This document shows, piece after piece, positions 13,651-30,476 of a DNA stretch of 30,476 nt (the stretch's first letter is position 1; every line of letters starts with the position of its first letter). Below the pieces are notes generated by a model. The model had not been told where the DNA came from. It did no database searches and saw only the letters and a list, made by a program, of their open reading frames with translations. Position numbers and translations under genes: made by a program. Location of the stretch: positions 1 through 30,476 of IMG/VR virus record IMGVR_UViG_3300045988_142700; one strand, given 5' to 3'. This DNA comes from a virus.

Positions 13651-13785
13651 TGTGAAAAATGTTGCGTAGCTTACACGTAACATACAAAAATATGTGAAAG
13701 CCTTGAAAAATGGCGGGTTACTGTTTATGTTCAGGAAGCAGCTGACAACGGCAAGTTCTAATTGTGAAAGTTTAAAAACATGCAT

Positions 13786-13819
13786 AAAAGCCGCAGTTCC
13801 GAGGGATTGCGGCTTTTTT
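13786..13819. terminator. bidirectional rho-independent terminator
   Basis: AAAAGCCGCA, 12-nt loop, TGCGGCTTTTTT. Confidence 0.6.
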
Positions 13820-13873
13820 ACATGTGTATAGTATCAGTAATAAAATACTGTGAAAATGTGTAAAAAAAGATGC

Positions 13874-13918
13874 GTAACTAGCAAGTAACTAACAAGTAAC
13901 TAACAGTCGTAACTAACA
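13874..13918. repeat. four direct GTAACTA(A/G)CA repeats (candidate integrase arm-type sites, attP)
   Basis: Copies start at 13874, 13885, 13896 and 13909, about 60 bp from the integrase stop codon. Confidence 0.55.
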
Positions 13919-13977
13919 AAAATAAGAGCATCCGGGACGACTAATTTTGGCTCGAATGCTCTTTATATTAACTATAC

Positions 13978-15036
13978 CTATTTGATTTTTGAAATTTCTT
14001 CGCGTAACTGTTGCATCGTTCTATGTGTATATACTTTTTCTGTTATATCTTCAATCTGATGTCCAACGATTAATTTTAAAATATATTCGTTCATATTAAC
14101 TGACTTAGCTTTTGTTATGAATGTATGTCGTGTATCATGTGGTTTATGATTTAATCCGAATTTTTTATTTATTTTATTTAGTCTTCCTCTGTATTTATCA
14201 TAAGTCATGTGCATTCCTTGCTGACCGTTTTCGTCATTAAAAAGATAATCACTGTTCAATGTTACTGCTTTTTTGTAATTCTTTTCAACAAGCTCAAATA
14301 TTGCAGGGTGTATAGGTACATATCTATTGCGTCCAGCTTCACTTTTTAAACCGCCAAAAAAAGTATGATTTTGCAAATCAACATCAGCAATTTTTAAGGT
14401 TGCAAGCTCCTGAGGTCTCCAGCCACTGTAAATTCCTATCAGGACCATGTCAACAAAAGGAAAGTCAACATTATGCCAAAGCAAGTTGATTTCTTCGTCA
14501 GAAAAAGGAATACGAATGATTGTTGCATCTTCACGCTTCACGTTTTCACTTAGAGCAGCATAGTCTTTATCGACAATGTCATATTTCAGAGCATATTTAA
14601 AAAGCTGGTTGTAAAGCGATTTCATTCGTGATTTTGTGCTGTTGCCGATATTGGCATTCTTAATTGTATCTTCAAGATGATTAGGGCGTATGTCTCTCAT
14701 ACGCATGTCGTGAAGCGGTTTTGAATGATTATAAGCACTCTTATATGTTCGTGTTGCTGACGGAGCAATCTTTTCAAAATGTTCATTGCTCCATTTTTCA
14801 TATACATCTGAAAAGGTAAATTTGTGAGAGTCAATGTCATACGGATTCTGATTATAATTAATCAAGGCGGCCAGAGCCTCCTGCTTTGTTGAATAATATC
14901 CGATAGTCATATAGAACTGTTTAGCTTTTCCTGTTTTACAGTCTATAGTCCATCCTTTTGTTTTTCTGGCTATCCACGGCTTACGACGTTTGCCTGAGAG
15001 TTTATAAACGCTTCCCATTCCATTAGCATTTTTCAT
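13978..15036 (-). CDS. int: tyrosine integrase with an AP2-like N-terminal arm-binding domain
   Basis: 352 aa. N-terminus GSVYKLSGKRRKPWIARKT...GYYSTKQEALAAL. Catalytic signatures are GWRPQEL, HDTRHTF and GH...TEKVYTH. The RBS is GGAGGTG. Confidence 0.9.
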   Translation of the reverse strand: MKNANGMGSVYKLSGKRRKPWIARKTKGWTIDCKTGKAKQFYMTIGYYSTKQEALAALINYNQNPYDIDSHKFTFSDVYEKWSNEHFEKIAPSATRTYKSAYNHSKPLHDMRMRDIRPNHLEDTIKNANIGNSTKSRMKSLYNQLFKYALKYDIVDKDYAALSENVKREDATIIRIPFSDEEINLLWHNVDFPFVDMVLIGIYSGWRPQELATLKIADVDLQNHTFFGGLKSEAGRNRYVPIHPAIFELVEKNYKKAVTLNSDYLFNDENGQQGMHMTYDKYRGRLNKINKKFGLNHKPHDTRHTFITKAKSVNMNEYILKLIVGHQIEDITEKVYTHRTMQQLREEISKIK

Positions 15037-15215: not shown

Positions 15216-16202
15216 TTATCGGTCAATGCATTTCTTGCATGCTATGTATCCCATATTTTCAACATCTGTACGTTTGCCGGTGTAATATCCTAGATTTTCA
15301 GGCTTGATTTTCTTCACTTCGGCACATGTTTTTAAATGAAACTTGTTTGTTGATGTGTTTAAAACATAGTCAACATCTTTTTCAACATATATTTTTTCTT
15401 CCGGCTGTGGAGAATTGTCTTCGTTGATAATAACATTATTGTCAGAGCAGCCAGATTCTTGCTCATAAGTATTTACGTTATCATCAGTAGCAGGAGAAAT
15501 GTTTGTTTGTTCTTCTTGTTCATTATTGTTTTGATTTAATACATCAGAAGAGGATTCGTTGTTGCTTTTTATAGATTCTTGTTCAGCTGGTGCATTAGTT
15601 GTATATTCTTTATATTCGCTTGTTTGCTCTATATACGCAGAAGTAGTTTCGATATTTGAGGCAACTTGTTGCGGTGAATTATCTACAATCCATCCTGAAT
15701 TTATGATTGAAATTGCAACAATAACCCATATAGGAGTATACACACACATCAATGTTAAAGGCTTTTTTGGAATATTTTTGTTTTTATAAACCAATGCAGC
15801 GAGTAGAGCTATTCCCAAAGGCGGAAATAGAACAAACAAAAGCCATGATACTATTTTTTTATCTCTAATTGTTGAGTCGTCATCATCATTATTCATGTTC
15901 ATATTTGGTGAGTTATAATTGTTATATCCCGGATTAGATGCTCTTGGAGTTGAATTTTGATTCGCGGATGCGGAAAAGTTACTTGCTGTTGTATTTGTAT
16001 TGTTTTTGCCGTTGGATGTGCTATCTATATTTTGATAATACAAACCGGTTCCAGGAATTCCAACAGATGATGTTTTACGTCCGGAAGAATTAATAGTATA
16101 GTGCATTCCATTGTTACCAAAGGTAAATCCTACACTTTTTTTGTTTATGTTAAATTTTGCTCCAGACCCTAATTTTATTGACTTTCTAAATCTTAATGAC
16201 AT
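15216..16202 (-). CDS. membrane protein: N-terminal DUF4236-like domain, two TM helices and a C-terminal H/C3 zinc motif
   Basis: MSLRFRKSIKLGSGAKFNINKKSVGFTFG...GIPGTGLYY is DUF4236-like. The TM helices are WLLFVLFPPLGIALLAALV and VYTPIWVIVAISII. The C-terminus is KFHLKTCAEV...GYIACKKCI. The ATG at 16202 has an AGAGGTG RBS; an alternative ATG lies at 16220. Confidence 0.7.
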   Translation of the reverse strand: MSLRFRKSIKLGSGAKFNINKKSVGFTFGNNGMHYTINSSGRKTSSVGIPGTGLYYQNIDSTSNGKNNTNTTASNFSASANQNSTPRASNPGYNNYNSPNMNMNNDDDDSTIRDKKIVSWLLFVLFPPLGIALLAALVYKNKNIPKKPLTLMCVYTPIWVIVAISIINSGWIVDNSPQQVASNIETTSAYIEQTSEYKEYTTNAPAEQESIKSNNESSSDVLNQNNNEQEEQTNISPATDDNVNTYEQESGCSDNNVIINEDNSPQPEEKIYVEKDVDYVLNTSTNKFHLKTCAEVKKIKPENLGYYTGKRTDVENMGYIACKKCIDR

Positions 16203-16270
16203 ATCTGACACCTCTTTCATTTGAATAATTCTATAACATATAAATTAGGTTCAAAATTTTAAATAGTTAC

Positions 16271-16300
16271 TTGATATAATAATATTGTATATGATATAAT
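16271..16300 (+). promoter_or_regulatory. candidate early rightward promoter
   Basis: TTGATA, 18-nt spacer, TATAAT, followed by the inverted repeat ATTCAGG...CCTGAAT (16307-16332). Confidence 0.4.
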
Positions 16301-16725: not shown

Positions 16726-16962
16726 ATGCAGGGCTTTAAATATGAACCAAATACAACAGTTCCTTACAATATAATTAACGGAAAAAAGATATTTAAGGTA
16801 GTTGCACCTTTTTATTCTGATGAAAAAGGTGTCATATATGGAAAATGCCCGGCTTGCGGCGGCAGTGTTTGCAGAATATGGAATCTTTCCAATTGCGGAA
16901 ATTGCGGCTGTGAAATAAGCTGGCACGCCATTCATGTTGATGGATGGGGAGATATTGACTAA
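16726..16962 (+). CDS. zinc-ribbon protein (78 aa)
   Basis: RBS is ACAGGAGG. Contains CPACGG...CGNCGC. Confidence 0.55.
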   Translation: MQGFKYEPNTTVPYNIINGKKIFKVVAPFYSDEKGVIYGKCPACGGSVCRIWNLSNCGNCGCEISWHAIHVDGWGDID

Positions 16963-16984: not shown

Positions 16985-17116
16985 ATGAGCGAAAAACTTA
17001 CACCGTCTGAAATAGAAAAATTCGCAAAAGAGTGGCTTGAAGTCACTGTCAGTCTTTCAAGATTTATAAAAAAGTCTGAATCAGAATCAGAAAAAATCAA
17101 AGAAAATCAAAGTTGA
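16985..17116 (+). CDS. small hypothetical protein (43 aa) whose 3' end runs into the iteron array
   Basis: RBS CGGAGG with ATG at 16985. Translation is MSEKLTPSEIEKFAKEWLEVTVSLSRFIKKSESESEKIKENQS. Confidence 0.35.
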   Translation: MSEKLTPSEIEKFAKEWLEVTVSLSRFIKKSESESEKIKENQS

Positions 17117-17190
17117 TAAAAGTTAGTAAAAGAATTTCAAAGTTAATCAGAGAAAATCAAAGAAAATCAGAGAAAATCAAAGTTAATAGA
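17081..17190 (+). repeat. array of 11 contiguous 10-bp direct repeats (candidate tubC-like centromere)
   Basis: Units start every 10 nt from 17081 to 17181. AGAAAATCA(A/G)-type units start at 17091, 17101, 17151, 17161 and 17171. AGTT(A/G)(A/G)T(A/C)(A/G)(A/G)-type units start at 17111, 17121, 17141 and 17181. Degenerate units start at 17081 and 17131. Confidence 0.8.
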
Positions 17191-17203
17191 ACAGGTGTTT
17201 AAA

Positions 17204-17476
17204 ATGAACAGAATTATGATTGGCGTTTTGATTACATTGCGTGACAGTTCGGCACTTGACTGTCTTACAGCTATGTCTGTATACGAGCTTGCTGATACAG
17301 AGCTCCTATATGGCATCTGTGTTAATACGATACACAAAAATGTTATGAAGCTGTTAGCTTCAGGCTTTATTGATAAAGGATTTAAAGACAGTCGTGCATT
17401 AACTTATTTTGTGACGCAAAAAGGACTTGATATATTAAATAAATTAAAGACAGGAGTGATAAAAGTTGAAAGATAG
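17204..17476 (+). CDS. small winged-helix DNA-binding protein (TubR-like centromere binder, by context)
   Basis: About 90 aa. MSVYELADTELLYGICVNTIHKNVMKLLASGFIDKGFKDSRALTYFVTQKGLDIL reads as a MarR/ArsR-like winged-helix-turn-helix. Its end overlaps the tubulin-like gene. An alternative GTG start lies at 17195. Confidence 0.6.
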   Translation: MNRIMIGVLITLRDSSALDCLTAMSVYELADTELLYGICVNTIHKNVMKLLASGFIDKGFKDSRALTYFVTQKGLDILNKLKTGVIKVER

Positions 17477-18494
17477 AATTGGTTTTGTCGCAGTCGGACA
17501 GGCTGGCGGCAACATTGGAAGATTATTTGAAGATAAAGGCTATTCAGTGTTATATCTTAACACTTCGGATGAAGACCTTGAGACAATCGACGGAGTACAT
17601 AAATATCATATCAGCGGCGGAGAGGGCTGTAATAAAGACAGGGATAAGGCTAAACAGCTTGTTGTAGATGACTTTGACAATATCGCCGAACGCATTGACG
17701 AGACAGTAAGTGCAGAGCTTTTATTTGTCATATTTGCTTCAGGCGGCGGAACAGGAAGCGGAGCGGGTCCAATGCTTGCCGACTTGTTAATTGACGATTC
17801 AAGAAATGTCGGAATAATTACAGTCATTCCGTCTGAAAGCGAAAGCATAAAGTCACAGATAAACAGTTATTATTGTTTTAATGAGATTTTTGCAATTGAG
17901 CAGACAGCGGCACTGTTTGTTCTTGACAATAACAAGGGCGAACGCCGTGAGCTTAATGAAAACTTTGTAAATGCTTTTAATTCATTTATTGAAATTCCGC
18001 AGAAATATAAATCAGAGAACGGAAATATTGACAAAGCGGAAATATTTGAATCGCTCAATTCGCACGGCATGGCAATAGTTGTAAGAAGTGAAAAAAATGA
18101 CGTTGCTGAGCTTGTTGCACAAATAGACAGCGGAGTATTTGCAATTCCGGAGCATGACAAGGCAGTTAAATATATAAGCTGTGCCTGTGGTGCCAGAATT
18201 AAAGATTTTTCTGACATAAAGAAAGCTGCCGGAAATCCATTTGATGAATTTCGTGCATATTCTGATGATGAGGCAGTGCTGCTTCTTTCAGGGCTTTCAT
18301 TTCCACTGACAAGAATTAATACAATACATGAGCTTATCAATGCAAATAAAGAATCTATTATAAACAGCACAAATATAAAAAGCGTGCAGCTTAAAGATGA
18401 TTTTGACTTTTTGAGTAAAAAGGTGAATGTGCCACAGACAAAGTCACAGCCAAAATCAAGGCGTGAAATTTTAGCAAAATATCTGAATAAATAG
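17466..18494 (+). CDS. tubZ: tubulin/FtsZ-superfamily GTPase (TubZ/PhuZ-like)
   Basis: TTG start 9 nt after AGGAG. VGQAGGNIG at aa 10-18 is T1-loop-like. GGGTGSG at aa 93-99 (nt 17742-17762) is the tubulin signature. Total 342 aa. Confidence 0.8.
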   Translation: MKDRIGFVAVGQAGGNIGRLFEDKGYSVLYLNTSDEDLETIDGVHKYHISGGEGCNKDRDKAKQLVVDDFDNIAERIDETVSAELLFVIFASGGGTGSGAGPMLADLLIDDSRNVGIITVIPSESESIKSQINSYYCFNEIFAIEQTAALFVLDNNKGERRELNENFVNAFNSFIEIPQKYKSENGNIDKAEIFESLNSHGMAIVVRSEKNDVAELVAQIDSGVFAIPEHDKAVKYISCACGARIKDFSDIKKAAGNPFDEFRAYSDDEAVLLLSGLSFPLTRINTIHELINANKESIINSTNIKSVQLKDDFDFLSKKVNVPQTKSQPKSRREILAKYLNK

Positions 18495-18503
18495 TAGGAA
18501 AGA

Positions 18504-18728
18504 ATGTGTGACATGAACCGGAAGAATTCAAACGAAACACAGTATGAATTTATGACATGTTATTGTTGCGGCAGAAGATTTTACTTTGGCGGCTATACGT
18601 ATGAAAGCTATGCATATAAGGCTTGTGACGGTTATCGCCGCTGTATCTTCTGCTCGTATAAGTGTCATCAGAAATTTCTGAAATATAAGGCAGAAAGAAA
18701 AAAGAATCATAAAAGAAAAAGAGGGTGA
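18504..18728 (+). CDS. Cys/His-rich small protein with a basic C-terminal tail
   Basis: 74 aa. CYCCGRRF...CIFCSYKCHQKF followed by KAERKKNHKRKRG. Tightly linked downstream of the tubZ-like gene. Confidence 0.5.
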   Translation: MCDMNRKNSNETQYEFMTCYCCGRRFYFGGYTYESYAYKACDGYRRCIFCSYKCHQKFLKYKAERKKNHKRKRG

Positions 18729-18732
18729 GCTT

Positions 18733-19509
18733 ATGGCTGAAAAGAGAATGTTTTCGACAAAAATAATAAATAGTGATCCATTCAAAGAGATGCCGCTGTC
18801 TGCACAGGCTTTGTACTTCCATCTCGGAATGAACGCAGACGACGAGGGATTTTTAAACAATGCAAAGAGCGTACAGCGTTCAATTCTTGCATCAGAGGAT
18901 GATTTAAAACTTCTGATTGCAAAAGATTTTATCATATCTTTTCCGTCAGGCGTTATCGTCATAAAGCACTGGAAGATGCATAATCAGATACAGGCAAGCC
19001 GCCTTAAACCTACGCAGTATACAGAGGAGAGAAGCATGCTTGCCGTTAAGGAAAACAAGGCGTACACGCTTAATTTAAACAATGTTGACAATTTGTCAAC
19101 ATCTGCTGACAATCGCATTGCTAGTGTAGAAGAGTGTAGTGTAGATAAGATTAGATTAGATGAGTGTAGTGTAGTGCAGTCTGCTGAAAATATGACATCA
19201 GCACATGCAGACACACAGCTTACACATTTGTCATATTCACCTATGACATGGCAGGAATATCAATTTCTTGCGGGTAAATACGGCAAAACACTTGTTGATT
19301 CAAAGATACAGCGTGCAAGCCAGTACAAAAACACATACAACTACGCAACAATTAAAAAATGGTGTGAAGAAGATGCACAGAAGCGTAGGCACAGTAATAA
19401 ATTTAATAACTTCAGTCAACGTGAAGTCGCTGATTTTGACGCTCTTGAATTAGAATTGATTGATAACACAATTGTTCAGGATTGCAGTTCAGGTGATGAC
19501 GGTGGGTAG
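18733..19509 (+). CDS. replication initiator / replisome-organizer-like protein
   Basis: The N-terminus KRMFSTKIINSDPFKEMPLSAQALYFHLGMNADDEGFLNN...VIVIKHWKMHNQIQ matches a widespread Firmicutes phage/plasmid replication-protein N-domain. An internal repeat cluster looks like an origin. Confidence 0.6.
   Translation: MAEKRMFSTKIINSDPFKEMPLSAQALYFHLGMNADDEGFLNNAKSVQRSILASEDDLKLLIAKDFIISFPSGVIVIKHWKMHNQIQASRLKPTQYTEERSMLAVKENKAYTLNLNNVDNLSTSADNRIASVEECSVDKIRLDECSVVQSAENMTSAHADTQLTHLSYSPMTWQEYQFLAGKYGKTLVDSKIQRASQYKNTYNYATIKKWCEEDAQKRRHSNKFNNFSQREVADFDALELELIDNTIVQDCSSGDDGG
19084..19174. repeat. origin-like cluster inside the replication gene
   Basis: Perfect palindrome GTTGACAATTTGTCAAC at 19084-19100. 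GAGTGTAGTGTAG occurs at 19132-19144 and 19162-19174. A TAGTGTAG copy lies at 19122-19129, and AGATTAGATTAGAT lies between the 13-mers. Confidence 0.55.
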
Positions 19510-19883: not shown

Positions 19884-20075
19884 ATGGGTGATTCAGCTAA
19901 ACAGGAGATATGTGCAATACTTGACTTGCTACACGGCTCACTTGTAAGAAACGGCGTGAGCATGGCAACAAACGAAAAAGGAGATTTGATATTTTTCGAT
20001 ACAGCGGCATATGTCAATAGCGGCAAGAAGACTATTGATGGATTTAAGGTTAATATTAATAATCTTGTTGAATAA
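19884..20075 (+). CDS. hypothetical protein (63 aa), intact copy of a duplicated small gene
   Basis: RBS GGGGG. The 3' 123 nt are repeated at 20903-21009. Confidence 0.5.
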   Translation: MGDSAKQEICAILDLLHGSLVRNGVSMATNEKGDLIFFDTAAYVNSGKKTIDGFKVNINNLVE

Positions 20076-20111
20076 GGCTCGTTTCAGCGGAAAGGAAATG
20101 GACATAGATTT

Positions 20112-20837
20112 ATGATAGTACATTGTTTATTTGAACAGTCAGGAACATTCAAGAACGCTTTCAAGAAGTATGGAATTGAAGCCTACGACTATGATATTCA
20201 GAATGAATTTAACGAAACCGACTATGTTACTGACCTTTTTAAAGAGATAGAAGGGGGGCATCAAGGCGAGCCGAGTTTGTTTGATAAGATAAGCCCTGAT
20301 GATTTGATATTTGCATTTTTCCCTTGCATAAGGTTTGAAAATCAGATAATGCTGTGGCTCAGAGGACAGTCGGCAAGTCAGAAAAAATGGTCTTTAGAAA
20401 AGAAATGCGAATTTGATATGAATTTGCTTAAAGAAGTTTCACTTATGTATGATTTAGTAAACAAATTGTTTATTATTTGCATGAGAAAAGGATTGAAGCT
20501 GGTAATGGAGAATCCTTATTCAGAAGAGCATTTTTTAAGGCGATATTGGTGTTGTTCCCCGGCGGTAATTGACAGAGATAGAAGAGATAATGGAGATTAC
20601 TTTAAAAAGCCTACACAGTATTGGTTTTTGAATTGCGAGCCACAGAACAATCTTGTTTTTGAGCCAATTAAGGATGTCGGGATATATGCTAAATGGGAGC
20701 ATCGAACAATGAATGATTATCGTGTTACTGGAGCGAGTAATGTTAAAACAGCAAGGTCAATGATACACCCACAGTACGCAGATAGATTTATCAGGGAATA
20801 TATTCTTGATGAGGAAATATGGAGAGCTAAACAATGA
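20112..20837 (+). CDS. divergent DNA cytosine-C5 methyltransferase-like protein
   Basis: 241 aa. CLFEQSGTF resembles motif I (FxGxG), FFPC resembles motif IV (PC) and VMENP resembles motif VI (ENV). No adjacent restriction endonuclease gene. Confidence 0.4.
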   Translation: MIVHCLFEQSGTFKNAFKKYGIEAYDYDIQNEFNETDYVTDLFKEIEGGHQGEPSLFDKISPDDLIFAFFPCIRFENQIMLWLRGQSASQKKWSLEKKCEFDMNLLKEVSLMYDLVNKLFIICMRKGLKLVMENPYSEEHFLRRYWCCSPAVIDRDRRDNGDYFKKPTQYWFLNCEPQNNLVFEPIKDVGIYAKWEHRTMNDYRVTGASNVKTARSMIHPQYADRFIREYILDEEIWRAKQ

Positions 20838-20971
20838 AAGACGAAACAAAGCAGGAAATACAGATTCTACTTGACCTACTCAAAGGCAGTCTTACAAAAA
20901 ATGGCGTGAGCATGGCAACAAACGAAAAAGGCGATTTAATCTTTTTCGATACAGCGGCAAGAAGACTGTAG
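20834..20971 (+). pseudogene. truncated, frameshifted paralogue of 19884..20075
   Basis: MKDETKQEIQILLDLLKGSLTKNGVSMATNEKGDLIFFDTAA, then a frameshift caused by a 16-nt deletion between two AGCGGCA copies. The remaining homologous 3' end (to 21009) is out of frame. Confidence 0.6.
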
Positions 20972-21143
20972 ATGGATTTAAGGTTAATATTAATAATCTT
21001 GTTAAATAAAGCCCGGTGCTTTTTTAATAGCCAGAAAAGGAGAATATGTCTCGAAAGAGACTTCAAGAATGGCAATACAGGCAATTGAAACTGTTCAGAA
21101 ATTATCTGAGAGGAAAATGACAATAGATGCTCTTTAAAACTAT

Positions 21144-21380
21144 ATGCAGTTTGAGGATGAATGTATTGAAAAAGGTTTTACGCTTAAAAGCGTGATTGAA
21201 GCCAGAGATAAGCAGATAGCAAAGAAAATTGAGACTTTTAATGGACAAGCGACATGTCCTAATTGCAAATATATTTTCGGAGCAATTGACGTCATTAAGA
21301 ATTTAATAGCGTGGCATATGCCATATTGCAAAGATTGCGGGCAGAAATTGGATTGGAGTGATGAAGATGAGGTTGATTGA
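21144..21380 (+). CDS. zinc-ribbon protein (78 aa)
   Basis: CPNC...CKDC. There is no RBS at the ATG, and the frame continues upstream through a TAA (see findings). Confidence 0.45.
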   Translation: MQFEDECIEKGFTLKSVIEARDKQIAKKIETFNGQATCPNCKYIFGAIDVIKNLIAWHMPYCKDCGQKLDWSDEDEVD

Positions 21381-21666
21381 TGCGGACAAGGTTATAAATA
21401 TATTGAAAGATAGGGCAACAAATGAAGCGGTTTGCGGATATATGACAGCTTACGATGTTACAAATAGCATTATAGATGAAATTGATGAGCAACCAGTCGC
21501 TTATGATGTAGATAAGGTTGTAGAACGGTTGGAAGAACTGCGAGAACTTGATGCGTGTGACTTTGATAATTGTCCTATCGAAGATATCCACTGTTGTGAT
21601 TGCACTCAAAAAAGAATGGCAGAACGAGCAATCGAGATTGTGAAAGGTGGTGGAATAGATGGCTAA
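21367..21666 (+). CDS. hypothetical phage protein (MRLIDAD... family)
   Basis: GGAG 8 nt upstream of the ATG at 21367. The N-terminus MRLIDADKV recurs in Firmicutes phages. Confidence 0.5.
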   Translation: MRLIDADKVINILKDRATNEAVCGYMTAYDVTNSIIDEIDEQPVAYDVDKVVERLEELRELDACDFDNCPIEDIHCCDCTQKRMAERAIEIVKGGGIDG

Positions 21667-21925
21667 GATATTAAATAAATGCCCTATATGTGGTGGAAGA
21701 TTAGAATACTCGGCTTTAATGCAATTCACTAAAGATTATCAAATCAAATTAAATGGTAGATTATCCAAAAACTCCAAAAATAGTGATGTATCACCTATGG
21801 AATGTGGTTTCATAAGTTGTACTGCTTGCAATTTCCATACTAATTGCGATTTGGAATGTGAAGAAAATCACAATATAAAAATATATCAAAAGAATGGAGT
21901 ATATCTGTATGAAGATGAACGATAG
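21659..21925 (+). CDS. zinc-ribbon protein (88 aa)
   Basis: CPICGG...CTAC, with RBS AAAGGTGG. Confidence 0.5.
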   Translation: MAKILNKCPICGGRLEYSALMQFTKDYQIKLNGRLSKNSKNSDVSPMECGFISCTACNFHTNCDLECEENHNIKIYQKNGVYLYEDER

Positions 21926-23278: not shown

Positions 23279-23923
23279 TTGAGAAGAATAAAATATTTTG
23301 AAGGACAGCATGAGACAAAGCCTATAAAAGACCAGAAAACAATAGATGCACTGTATGGGTATTTTCTGAAAAAAATCGACAATGCAAAATCAGACTGTAA
23401 AAAATATCAGTGGGAGCGTAACTATATGCTTGTGCATATCGGGCTTAATACAGCTTTCAGGGCAGAGGATTTGCTACAGTTAAGGGTTATTGATGTTTAC
23501 AAGGGTTATATTCAGATTAAGGAAAACAAGACCGGGAAAATGCAGAATTTCAAGATGAATAAACAGCTGCATCAAGATGTGCTTGCTTATATTGATAAAT
23601 ATAAACTTGGAAAATATGATTACTTATTCAGAGGACAGAAACGCTATGTGGCAGGAAAGGCTTATATATATCCTATAAACAGGCAGATGGGACATAGGAT
23701 TATATCAAGTGCAGGAGAAGCGATAGGAATACCATATACATTCGGGCTTCATTCACTAAGAAAAACATTTGGCTATCAATATATAAAACGTGGCGGCAAT
23801 GTCATAACTCTGATGAAGATGTATAACCATGATTCGCCTGATGTCACGCTAAGATATGTGTGCTGGGGAAAAGAGGACGCAGAGCATGACAGGACAGCCA
23901 TGTATATAGGACCGAAAAAGTAA
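23279..23923 (+). CDS. small tyrosine recombinase (catalytic domain only, 214 aa)
   Basis: TTG start 7 nt after GGAGAGGAG. Motifs are AFRAEDLLQL (Arg I), KTGK, HSLRKTF (H-x-x-R) and NHDSPDVTLRYV (His/Tyr). Confidence 0.8.
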   Translation: MRRIKYFEGQHETKPIKDQKTIDALYGYFLKKIDNAKSDCKKYQWERNYMLVHIGLNTAFRAEDLLQLRVIDVYKGYIQIKENKTGKMQNFKMNKQLHQDVLAYIDKYKLGKYDYLFRGQKRYVAGKAYIYPINRQMGHRIISSAGEAIGIPYTFGLHSLRKTFGYQYIKRGGNVITLMKMYNHDSPDVTLRYVCWGKEDAEHDRTAMYIGPKK

Positions 23924-29280: not shown

Positions 29281-30476
29281 ATGTTAAACAAGGATTTATT
29301 ACAGGAAAAGAACAAACAGCTCATGCAGAGCTTGTCAGAAGCATTAAAGGCGGATGATACAGACAAAATGACAGAATGCCTGCAGCAGTTTGCCACAGGA
29401 GTTGAGCAGCGTATCATTGAAGAATATGCTGATTTGAGAAACAATAACGATATTGCGGTTCTCGCACAGCGTGGCGTAAGACAGCTTACAAGCGAAGAAA
29501 AAGAGTTTTATGAAAAGTGGGCTGACGCTGGAAGGAGCGGCAATCCACGACAGGCTCTTGTTGACATAAGCAAAGCTATGCCGCAGACAATTATTGATTC
29601 TGTGATTGATGATATGCAGGAAGCTCACCCTCTTCTTGCGGCAATCGACTTTATTAACTGTCAGGGTGCAATCAAGATGATTGTAAATGCGGATAACATA
29701 GAGCTTGCAACATGGAGTGCATTAACAACGCAGATTTCAACAGAACTTGCAGGTCAGATTAAGGAGCAGGATATGACGCTTGCAAAGTTATCAGCCTTTA
29801 TTCCTGTATCAAAAGATATGCTCGACCTTGGTCCGGCATGGCTCGATAACTATGTAAGAATTATTCTGTCAGAGGCATCAGCCGGAGGTCTTGAAAAAGG
29901 AATTGTAAAGGGTACAGGAAAAGATGAGCCTGTTGGAATGTGTAAAGACCTTGAGGCGGCTGTAACTAAAGGCGTGTATTCAGATAAATCAAAAACAGTA
30001 TTAAAGACACTTTCTGCTACAGATTATTGTGCAGCAGTTGCTCCACTTGCGAAAAAGCCGGATGGCGGCTATAGAGTTGTTCCGGAAGTTATGTTAATCG
30101 TAAATCCGGTAGATTATATCTCAAAGGTGATTCCGGCCTCAACAGTAAGAGATTCATCAGGAAACTATAAAAACAATGTATTTCCATATCCAACAAACGC
30201 AATCCAGTCGGCAGCACTTGCAGAAGGTGAGGCGATTCTTGGAATTCCTAATAAATACTTTATGGGTGTTGGTGCCGGAAACAGCGGTAAGATTGAATAT
30301 TCTGACGAATATCAGTTCTTACAGGATAACAGAGTATATCTCACAAAATTATATGCAATGGGTATGCCGAAGGACAACAATGCTTTTATTTATCTTGACA
30401 TCAGCAAATTAAAACCAGCGGATATTAAAGTTGAGGTAACTAACACAGAGGACAATCCTGTAAACACAAAAGCGAA
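29281..30476 (+). CDS. major capsid protein (HK97 fold family); it runs off the window end and finishes at 1..86
   Basis: RBS ACAGGAGG. MLNKDLLQEKNKQL...LTSEEKEFYEKW...GTGKDEPVGM...YLTKLYAMG. No stop codon occurs before the window end. Confidence 0.9.
   Translation, partial: MLNKDLLQEKNKQLMQSLSEALKADDTDKMTECLQQFATGVEQRIIEEYADLRNNNDIAVLAQRGVRQLTSEEKEFYEKWADAGRSGNPRQALVDISKAMPQTIIDSVIDDMQEAHPLLAAIDFINCQGAIKMIVNADNIELATWSALTTQISTELAGQIKEQDMTLAKLSAFIPVSKDMLDLGPAWLDNYVRIILSEASAGGLEKGIVKGTGKDEPVGMCKDLEAAVTKGVYSDKSKTVLKTLSATDYCAAVAPLAKKPDGGYRVVPEVMLIVNPVDYISKVIPASTVRDSSGNYKNNVFPYPTNAIQSAALAEGEAILGIPNKYFMGVGAGNSGKIEYSDEYQFLQDNRVYLTKLYAMGMPKDNNAFIYLDISKLKPADIKVEVTNTEDNPVNTKA
30422..30476. repeat. 55-bp terminal overlap identical to 1..55
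   Basis: Direct base-by-base comparison of the two ends. Confidence 0.95.

Follow-up and report, generated by a model that had tools for sequence, protein, structure and literature searches.

A candidate minimal TubZRC cassette of the c-st type in the early replication region of a 30-kb temperate siphovirus

Introduction

Why should a phage with a genome of only 30 kb carry a tubulin of its own? The question is raised by a viral genome from IMG/VR (record IMGVR_UViG_3300045988_142700, positions 1 to 30,476; this whole stretch of 30,476 nucleotides (nt) is hereafter called the window), where an open reading frame (ORF) of the tubulin/FtsZ superfamily at 17466–18494 is preceded by a small ORF at 17204–17476 and a repeat array at 17083–17192. 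A first-pass annotation, made from the sequence letters, had taken these elements for a type III (TubZRC) partition module, and had suggested that it could either partition an episomal prophage or position replicating and packaging DNA. In the literature that we searched, TubZRC systems are described on plasmids of Bacillus and Clostridium and on the 186-kb plasmid prophage c-st, and the phage tubulin PhuZ is described in jumbo phages. In the TubZRC systems, TubR coats the centromere tubC, and GTP-bound TubZ filaments capture the complex via the C-terminal tail of TubZ and move the DNA (PMC6009700, PMC5322520).

Here we analyse the locus together with its relatives. The best explanation of the data is that the window bears a minimal c-st-type TubZRC cassette, comprising tubC iterons, TubR and TubZ and lacking TubY, within the early replication operon of an integrating temperate siphovirus. 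As regards its role, we lean, with little more than even confidence, towards the view that, once infection or induction has occurred, the cassette positions extrachromosomal phage genomes or keeps them apart, and that it does not serve to maintain a plasmid prophage.

A tubZ gene closest to that of phage c-st

The ORF at 17466–18494 (plus strand) starts with a TTG codon preceded by an AGGAG and encodes a protein of 342 amino acids (aa). Its two nucleotide-binding elements lie exactly where the first-pass annotation had placed them: VGQAGGNIG, the T1 loop, occupies aa 10–18, and GGGTGSG, the T4 signature, occupies aa 93–99 (nt 17742–17762). In an alignment of 19 homologues both elements are invariant, as is the T7-like G186-N187-x-D189-x-x-E192 (GNIDKAE). 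The matches to Pfam and to the structures in the Protein Data Bank (PDB) go far beyond chance. The protein is recognised by Pfam Tubulin (PF00091, E 3.5e-14; 54 bits vs. a cutoff of 33) and by TubZ_C_3 (PF22340, E 1e-6; 29.1 bits vs. a cutoff of 27), as well as by PHROG 17961 (E 1.9e-30), a family annotated as being of “unknown function”. The best PDB match is c-st TubZ (4xcq/3v3t), with E 1.7e-32 over aa 1–293, while FtsZ, CetZ, RepX and PhuZ are far behind, FtsZ reaching E 1e-8 or weaker.

The AlphaFold 2 (AF2) model, built with the 19 homologues, shows a two-domain tubulin fold (pLDDT 86, pTM 0.86), followed by a low-confidence, disordered linker (aa 303–328) and a terminal helix (aa 332–340). 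The C-terminal helix, ...RREILAKYLNK, is conserved, and the motif at its tip is kept across the family. When the model was compared with the PDB by Foldseek, as the first-pass annotation had recommended, c-st TubZ again came out on top (3v3t/4xcq, E 2e-26, TMt 0.87, root mean square deviation (rmsd) 2.5 Å), and the TubZ proteins of Bacillus and then CetZ and FtsZ ranked below it. Taken together, these results provide good support for the conclusion that the ORF encodes TubZ, a predicted GTPase of the tubulin/FtsZ superfamily, closest to that of phage c-st. The conserved tip of the flexible tail would be its partner-binding element, contacting the TubR–tubC complex.

Two other identities were considered and rejected. 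FtsZ does not fit, as the NCBIfam ftsZ model (TIGR00065) gives 23.4 bits vs. a cutoff of 295.2. For PhuZ, the relation proposed in the first-pass annotation holds at the level of the superfamily, the PhuZ family phrog_4733 matching with E 4e-16 in the GTPase domain only (aa 5–200), and does not extend to close sequence similarity (PDB 3r4v/3j5v, E about 7e-3); moreover, TubR and iterons are present here, and the genome is of 30 kb.

A short TubR encoded by the overlapping ORF

The ORF at 17204–17476 (plus strand; ATG start, 90 aa) overlaps the start of tubZ by 11 nt at its 3′ end. When taken alone, its product gives only a weak winged-helix match (HTH_45, E 9e-4, below the cutoff), and a direct BLASTP comparison with c-st TubR was not significant, so that its membership in the TubR family rests on the family profile. 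This profile (A2) was built from 55 non-redundant ORFs situated upstream of tubZ in related loci. It matches C. botulinum c-st TubR (PDB 6tey) with E 1.1e-17 over the whole length and pBM400 TubR (4asn) with E 1.3e-4, and when the window sequence is left out of the profile, the window protein still reaches 74 bits (E 3e-25). A word-index search for TubR gave 4 hits and a profile search 32.

The AF2 model of the protein (pLDDT 92) has the H-H-H-wing-H topology of a winged helix, and Foldseek places 4asn TubR first among the PDB structures (TM-score 0.77, rmsd 1.7 Å), followed by centromere-binding proteins of archaeal plasmids, with 6tey at rank 11. The earlier reading of this ORF as a winged-helix DNA binder is thus borne out both by the family profile and by the fold. 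On the profile evidence, with the fold in support, we assign the ORF as a short TubR of the c-st type.

A tubC-like iteron array upstream of tubR

The repeats noticed upstream of tubR in the first-pass annotation are real and have a period of 10 bp. About 11 units in exact 10-bp register span 17083–17192 (plus strand), and Tandem Repeats Finder reports 17085–17182 with period 10 and 9.8 copies. The array opens with two or three good units (AGAATCAGAA and two copies of AAAATCAAAG), passes through three degenerate units in the middle (17113–17142) and continues with four good units (17143–17182, WAATCARAG) and one more degenerate unit; it overlaps the 3′ end of a 43-aa ORF (16985–17116) and ends 11 nt before the tubR ATG. 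The total number of AATCARAG copies in the genome is not unusual in itself. What is unusual is their clustering and phasing, since six of the seven copies fall within the array and a repeat search shows their 10-nt spacing. We regard the array as a putative centromere bound by TubR. The window therefore shows an array, tubR and tubZ in the centromere, adaptor and filament order of type III systems, with c-st as the closest of them.

The cassette in related loci

The cassette is not confined to the window. A search of 5.8 billion proteins yielded 513 TubZ relatives, many of them with 50–57% identity and a length of 340–350 aa, and an exhaustive search of 1.84 billion cluster representatives yielded 136 clusters at E ≤ 1e-30 and 439 at E ≤ 1e-10. 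We collected 152 loci, comprising 79 from species-representative genomes, 66 IMG/VR viral contigs and a few metagenome look-ups. The genome loci belong mostly to Lachnospiraceae (Blautia, Anaerocolumna, Lachnospira, Acetatifactor, Hungatella, Cellulosilyticum, Holtiella and others). Cultured carriers include Anaerocolumna xylanovorans DSM 12503, Blautia schinkii DSM 10518 and Lachnospira intestinalis CLA-AA-H89B. The viral contigs range from 5.6 to 70 kb, mostly from 20 to 55 kb, and three of them are 95–97% identical to the window. Furthermore, a variant protein (P0088) is indexed in 242 blocks of the collection of metagenomes, its contigs reaching 1.66 Mb, and the distant representatives P0142 and P0194 lie on contigs of about 2 kb, each with a small ORF upstream. 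Among GenBank phages there is no DNA nearly identical to the window, and at the protein level only c-st, D-1873 and phage G match its TubZ, with 27% identity.

A match to the TubR profile was found just upstream of tubZ in 149 of the 152 loci, the three exceptions being truncated loci. The tubR stop and the tubZ start overlap by 4 nt in 68 loci and by 11 nt in 21, which suggests that the two genes are translationally coupled. In a Blautia subclade (L007, L008, L090 and about seven further loci) tubR and tubZ are separated by an additional ORF of about 165 aa, which carries a hydrophobic segment at its N-terminus, and the resulting gap of 356–492 nt breaks the otherwise universal overlap.

The periodic array is also a family feature. 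Over the 150 nt upstream of tubR, the mean self-identity at lags of 10, 20 and 30 nt is 0.47 vs. a background of 0.28 (129 distinct loci), with a peak at lag 10 or 20 in 118 of them and none in a coding-region control. Strong arrays of 7–13 units are present in 98 of 130 distinct loci, with a median end 20 nt before tubR. The sequence of the iteron itself varies by clade, for instance ATCAGAG, ATGAAAC or AATAAGAG, and the similarity of the iterons follows TubR identity (r 0.62, Mantel p about 0.001), which is consistent with co-evolution of the two, shared ancestry being a confounder.

Position beside the replication genes

The surroundings of tubZ agree with the earlier description of a module placed immediately ahead of the replication initiator in a compact siphovirus that encodes an integrase. 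In the window, a 74-aa ORF follows tubZ, and next to it lies a gene for a DnaD-like replication organiser or initiator (18733–19509, plus strand; phrog_5708, E 1.7e-60; phrog_8489, E about 1e-60). Within this gene we found an inverted repeat with a 10-bp stem (19081–19103; AATGTTGACAA/TTGTCAACATC) and clustered AGTGTAG repeats (19122–19180; period 15 and 3.5 copies by Tandem Repeats Finder), so the segment 19081–19180, about 2 kb downstream of the tubC-like array, is a likely replication origin. The association is a stable one: in most loci a replication initiator begins within a few tens of bases after tubZ, the Phage_rep_org_N type standing directly after tubZ in 92 of 140 loci and the DnaD-like type being that of the window clade. 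In relatives the cassette lies downstream of a cro-like gene and divergent from the repressor and integrase genes, and the prophage layout runs from the host gene through the integrase, the repressor, the cro-like gene and small early genes to tubR, tubZ and the replication genes.

By a consensus scan, the best, and only strong, promoter-like site of the early rightward operon is TTGATA-18-TATAAT with a TG (16271–16300, plus strand), and between this site and tubR the same scan revealed no comparable promoter and no convincing terminator. It also found no convincing sigma-70-like promoter within the iterons, a result which is not decisive. On this basis, tubR and tubZ would be co-transcribed with the early rightward operon.

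No counterpart of the MerR-like TubY was found. In a tblastn search with c-st TubY, whose sensitivity is limited, the window and the 151 other loci gave nothing better than E 3.8, and no MerR-like ORF turned up in the general family scans of the window. Two small ORFs were considered as further components of the cassette and rejected. The first is the cysteine-rich, basic-tailed, zinc-ribbon-like ORF of 74 aa between tubZ and the replication gene (18504–18728, plus strand), which has no family match in Pfam, PHROG and NCBIfam scans; as a TubY substitute or core part it fails, being specific to the window clade, present in only 8 of 140 loci and unlike TubY. The second, a zinc-ribbon ORF upstream of the iterons (16726–16962), was considered as a fourth component and is present in 45 of 118 distinct loci. 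The early region as a whole has four small zinc-ribbon-like ORFs of the Cys4 type, these two and those at 21144–21380 and 21659–21925.

Comparison with known systems

The closest solved relative is the c-st system (CST190/CST189/CST188; 3v3t, 4xcq, 6tey), with about 27% identity in TubZ. Both systems are phage-borne and have direct repeats upstream of tubR and the order tubR–tubZ; both encode a short TubR (about 81–90 aa) devoid of the N-terminal dimerisation helix (PMC6009700), and in both TubZ has a long flexible tail with a similar tip, ...FFSKYM in c-st and ...ILAKYL in the window. The differences are no less clear. The window is a 30.4-kb phage of an integrating lineage, whereas c-st is a 186-kb plasmid prophage. 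In c-st, tubC is split into two blocks over about 350 bp and uses iterons of two kinds, TTGAC and A/TGAA (PMC6009700), whereas the window has a single array, about 110 bp long, in which the units keep strictly to a 10-bp phase. In c-st, the MerR-like TubY is encoded downstream, while none was found in the window or the family loci, and the cassette of the window, in contrast to that of c-st, abuts the replication initiator.

The Bacillus plasmids (pBtoxis, pXO1 with RepX, pBM400, pBsph) share the same three-part logic and the same fold (Foldseek, 4ei7 and 2xka, E about 1e-17). Identity to the window TubZ is 16–18% by structure and about 29% by tblastn to the TubZ of a Priestia pBM400-type plasmid. 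The repeats of the Bacillus systems are of about 12 bp. Their TubZ is longer (380–480 aa), their TubR is dimeric (PMC6009700), and they reside on large low-copy plasmids. According to the references given in PMC7762940, TubZ/RepX has historically been tied to replication and minimal replicons. The same source, citing Oliva 2012, mentions chromosomal TubZ and TubY without TubR in some Clostridia, an arrangement different from that of the window clade.

PhuZ and the phiKZ-type TubZ of jumbo phages are phage tubulins which position phage DNA or the phage nucleus during the lytic cycle. They resemble the window TubZ in the GTPase domain and by fold (PDB 3zbq, 9pm9), the sequence similarity being weak. 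As far as is known, PhuZ lacks both a TubR and a centromere, its tail is short, and the lytic phages that encode it have genomes of more than 200 kb. Its loss also lowers replication, according to work cited in PMC4446434.

The best functional analogue is AlpA/AlpC/alpS of the Corynebacterium glutamicum prophage CGP3, where an integrated prophage has a gene for a filament protein, co-transcribed with that of a DNA adaptor, and repeats upstream of them. Switched on early, this system couples the circular phage DNA to filaments, and the phage DNA does not replicate efficiently without it (PMC4446434). It differs in that AlpC is an actin-fold ATPase with no homology to TubZ, and in that CGP3 is a large cryptic prophage. 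The same paper proposed cytoskeletal filaments as a trait of phages with large genomes, a unifying theme (PMC4446434) which a 30-kb phage with a full tubulin cassette contradicts.

Proposed role and alternative explanations

As the parts of the cassette are homologous to those of a type III partition system, the same molecular mechanism is most likely. After infection or induction, tubR and tubZ would be transcribed together with the early genes. TubR would load cooperatively on about ten iterons, which, phased at one per helical turn, would place the binding sites on one face of the DNA. The resulting nucleoprotein segrosome would sit on the circular genome of the phage, some 2 kb away from the origin. 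In the presence of GTP, TubZ would form dynamic filaments that capture the TubR–tubC complex through the conserved tip of the flexible TubZ tail, such that filament growth or treadmilling would move or separate extrachromosomal phage genomes. They could be carried away from the excision site or the nucleoid, or else to a site of replication or packaging, the gain being efficient replication or virion yield.

The early induction of AlpA/AlpC/alpS and the need for it in replication make it the nearest functional precedent. Together with the integrating lineage and the place of the cassette beside the replication genes, it leads us to favour positioning in the replicative phase. Of the two roles suggested in the first-pass annotation, the positioning of replicating or packaging DNA fits the data better than the partition of an episome.

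Several points weigh against this reading. To our knowledge, all the TubZRC systems studied experimentally act in plasmid partition. The promoter scan is a weak tool, and c-st and pBtoxis have a promoter under TubR control; one located inside the iterons or ahead of them could allow expression in lysogens here too. The correlation between iterons and TubR is confounded by common descent. Finally, the window is a circular contig with neither the repressor nor the cro gene that its close relatives carry, so its own lifestyle may differ from that of the integrated relatives.

Among the alternatives, a transient partition before integration would make use of the same early-operon position beside the replication genes, of the integrases found across the clade and of the partition-type nature of the machinery. 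Here, the cassette would be expressed directly upon infection, and the few replicated but still unintegrated genomes would be spread to both daughter cells, so that lysogenisation becomes more frequent and fewer infections end in abortive lysogeny or in loss through pseudolysogeny. Only a large benefit would explain why about 1.4 kb is retained in a 30-kb genome. We give this explanation a low probability and keep it as a live rival; sequence data alone cannot separate it from the positioning of genomes in the replicative cycle.

About as improbable in our view, and likewise a live rival, is a classical type III partition, by which the phage would persist as a low-copy circular episome, TubZRC would segregate its copies as proposed for c-st, and the recombinases would serve multimer resolution or optional integration. 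The closest characterised homologues do work in this way, partition genes are typical of plasmid prophages (PMC8026635), and the window, a closed circle, has a second short tyrosine recombinase and no recognisable CI/Cro pair. Indeed, it is a complete circular assembly whose ends share an exact overlap of 55 bp (1–55 = 30422–30476), the true length being 30,421 bp; the region of the capsid genes probably spans the contig ends. A circular assembly, however, is also expected from packaged or replicating phage DNA, and the integration data point in the other direction.

The integration module of the window (13730–15036, minus strand) comprises an attP core at about 13735–13766, arm-type repeats at 13874–13919 and a tyrosine integrase of 352 aa (13978–15036) matching Pfam Phage_integrase and phrog_1. 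No excisionase was recognised in the window. A close relative, L152, found on a 150-kb metagenome scaffold, shares 95–96% identity with the window in tubRZ and in its replication and late genes, and is integrated beside host genes. The junction alignment shows that the identity between the window and L152 starts within the last 31 nt of a host gene of the GGGtGRT family (L152 1876–1907), thus indicating that attP of the window reconstitutes the 3′ end of this gene. The integrase region is only 83% identical to the relative at the DNA level, in step with differing arm-type repeats (GTAACTAACAA four times in the window vs. CGTAATATACA three times in the relative).

The rest of the family provides further evidence of an integrative lifestyle. 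An integrase gene lies upstream on the opposite strand in at least 58 of the 95 loci with enough upstream sequence, about 30 of the 79 genome loci are on contigs of more than 100 kb, two of the loci are on complete chromosomes (6.4 and 6.8 Mb), and dozens of family members are integrated like L152. The clade is absent from the 72,556 plasmids of PLSDB, where the sole hits are the known TubZ proteins of Priestia and of C. botulinum group III, with at most 30% identity. A type III system is expected to be carried on, and to stabilise, a low-copy extrachromosomal replicon; this lineage integrates and is missing from the plasmid collection, and the window itself, as a circular contig, may be in either state. 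Since the lineage integrates and the cassette is located in an early rightward operon beside replication genes and not in a lysogeny module, long-term plasmid maintenance is unlikely, and the data speak against the first role suggested for this module, partition of an episomal prophage.

The notion that TubZ filaments disturb the host FtsZ, division or architecture during lytic growth, with TubR only an autoregulator on operator-like repeats, draws on the membership of TubZ in the FtsZ superfamily, on phages that target division (e.g., lambda Kil) and on the repression of their own operon by TubR-type proteins (PMC6009700), but the 10-bp-phased arrays of 7–13 units, the strict coupling of tubR to tubZ and the c-st-like tail tip are hallmarks of a DNA-cargo system and make it very improbable.

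Novelty and implications

The components of the cassette are known. Its setting, the early replication operon of small integrating phages, is new, and its role is probably different. In the literature searched, which gives no proof of absence, we found no description of a tubC–tubR–tubZ cassette without TubY in small integrating siphoviruses, nor of its fixed association with a replication module. The first-pass annotation had left the novelty of the combination to be verified; with about 150 loci the combination is not singular and the argument from rarity becomes weaker, while the case for an unstudied, widespread system becomes stronger. There may be, and here our confidence falls slightly short of even, an undescribed large class of small (mostly 20–55 kb) integrating temperate phages of gut Clostridia that use TubZRC in their replication module for organising or separating their genomes in the replicative cycle.

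If this is true, tubulin cytoskeletons would occur also in phages of ordinary size and not just in jumbo phages and plasmid prophages, and a common origin of plasmid partition systems and phage replication-associated systems would be suggested. Phage cytoskeletons have so far been tied to very large genomes (PhuZ, AlpC of CGP3, TubZ of c-st) or to plasmid lifestyles; here, a full cassette is carried by a 30-kb phage and recurs in more than 100 prophages of common Lachnospiraceae of the human and animal gut. If the role lies in replication or positioning, the phage would be a small model, amenable to genetics, in which to study why phages should need a tubulin of their own, the old link between TubZ/RepX and replication, still unresolved, would be reopened, and a compact three-part DNA-positioning module for Clostridia (about 110 bp of iterons and about 1.3 kb of genes, no TubY) would become available. 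Moreover, database annotation can be corrected, as genes of this family carry the label “cell division protein FtsZ” or “hypothetical” and PHROG 17961 has no function assigned to it.

Other features of the genome

Apart from the cassette and its replication neighbourhood, the window encodes the tail, lysis, terminase, portal and protease genes of a siphovirus. In the segment 15211–16335 it lacks the genes for an HTH_3 repressor, an ImmA-like peptidase and a Cro-like protein, which are present in the 95–96% identical relatives L002 and L152; the position of the repressor and cro genes is occupied by a gene for a DUF4236 membrane protein of 334 aa (15216–16220, minus strand). Possibly this variant has no repressor at all, or else a regulator that escaped recognition takes its place.

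The second gene of the tyrosine-recombinase family (23279–23923, plus strand; 214 aa) is situated just upstream of the HNH/terminase late block. It has the same position in L001, L006, L152 and L156, its product ranging from 183 to 331 aa outside the window, and it is kept even in distant prophages of the family that integrate via a serine recombinase. Possible functions of its product are late regulation, the resolution of multimers and DNA inversion.

Finally, a direct duplication of about 155 bp of a small ORF (19918–20081 and 20868–21015; 84–92% identity) flanks a DNA-methyltransferase-like gene (20112–20837). As L152 has a single copy of this stretch and no methylase, the duplication and the methylase look like a recent cassette insertion by recombination.

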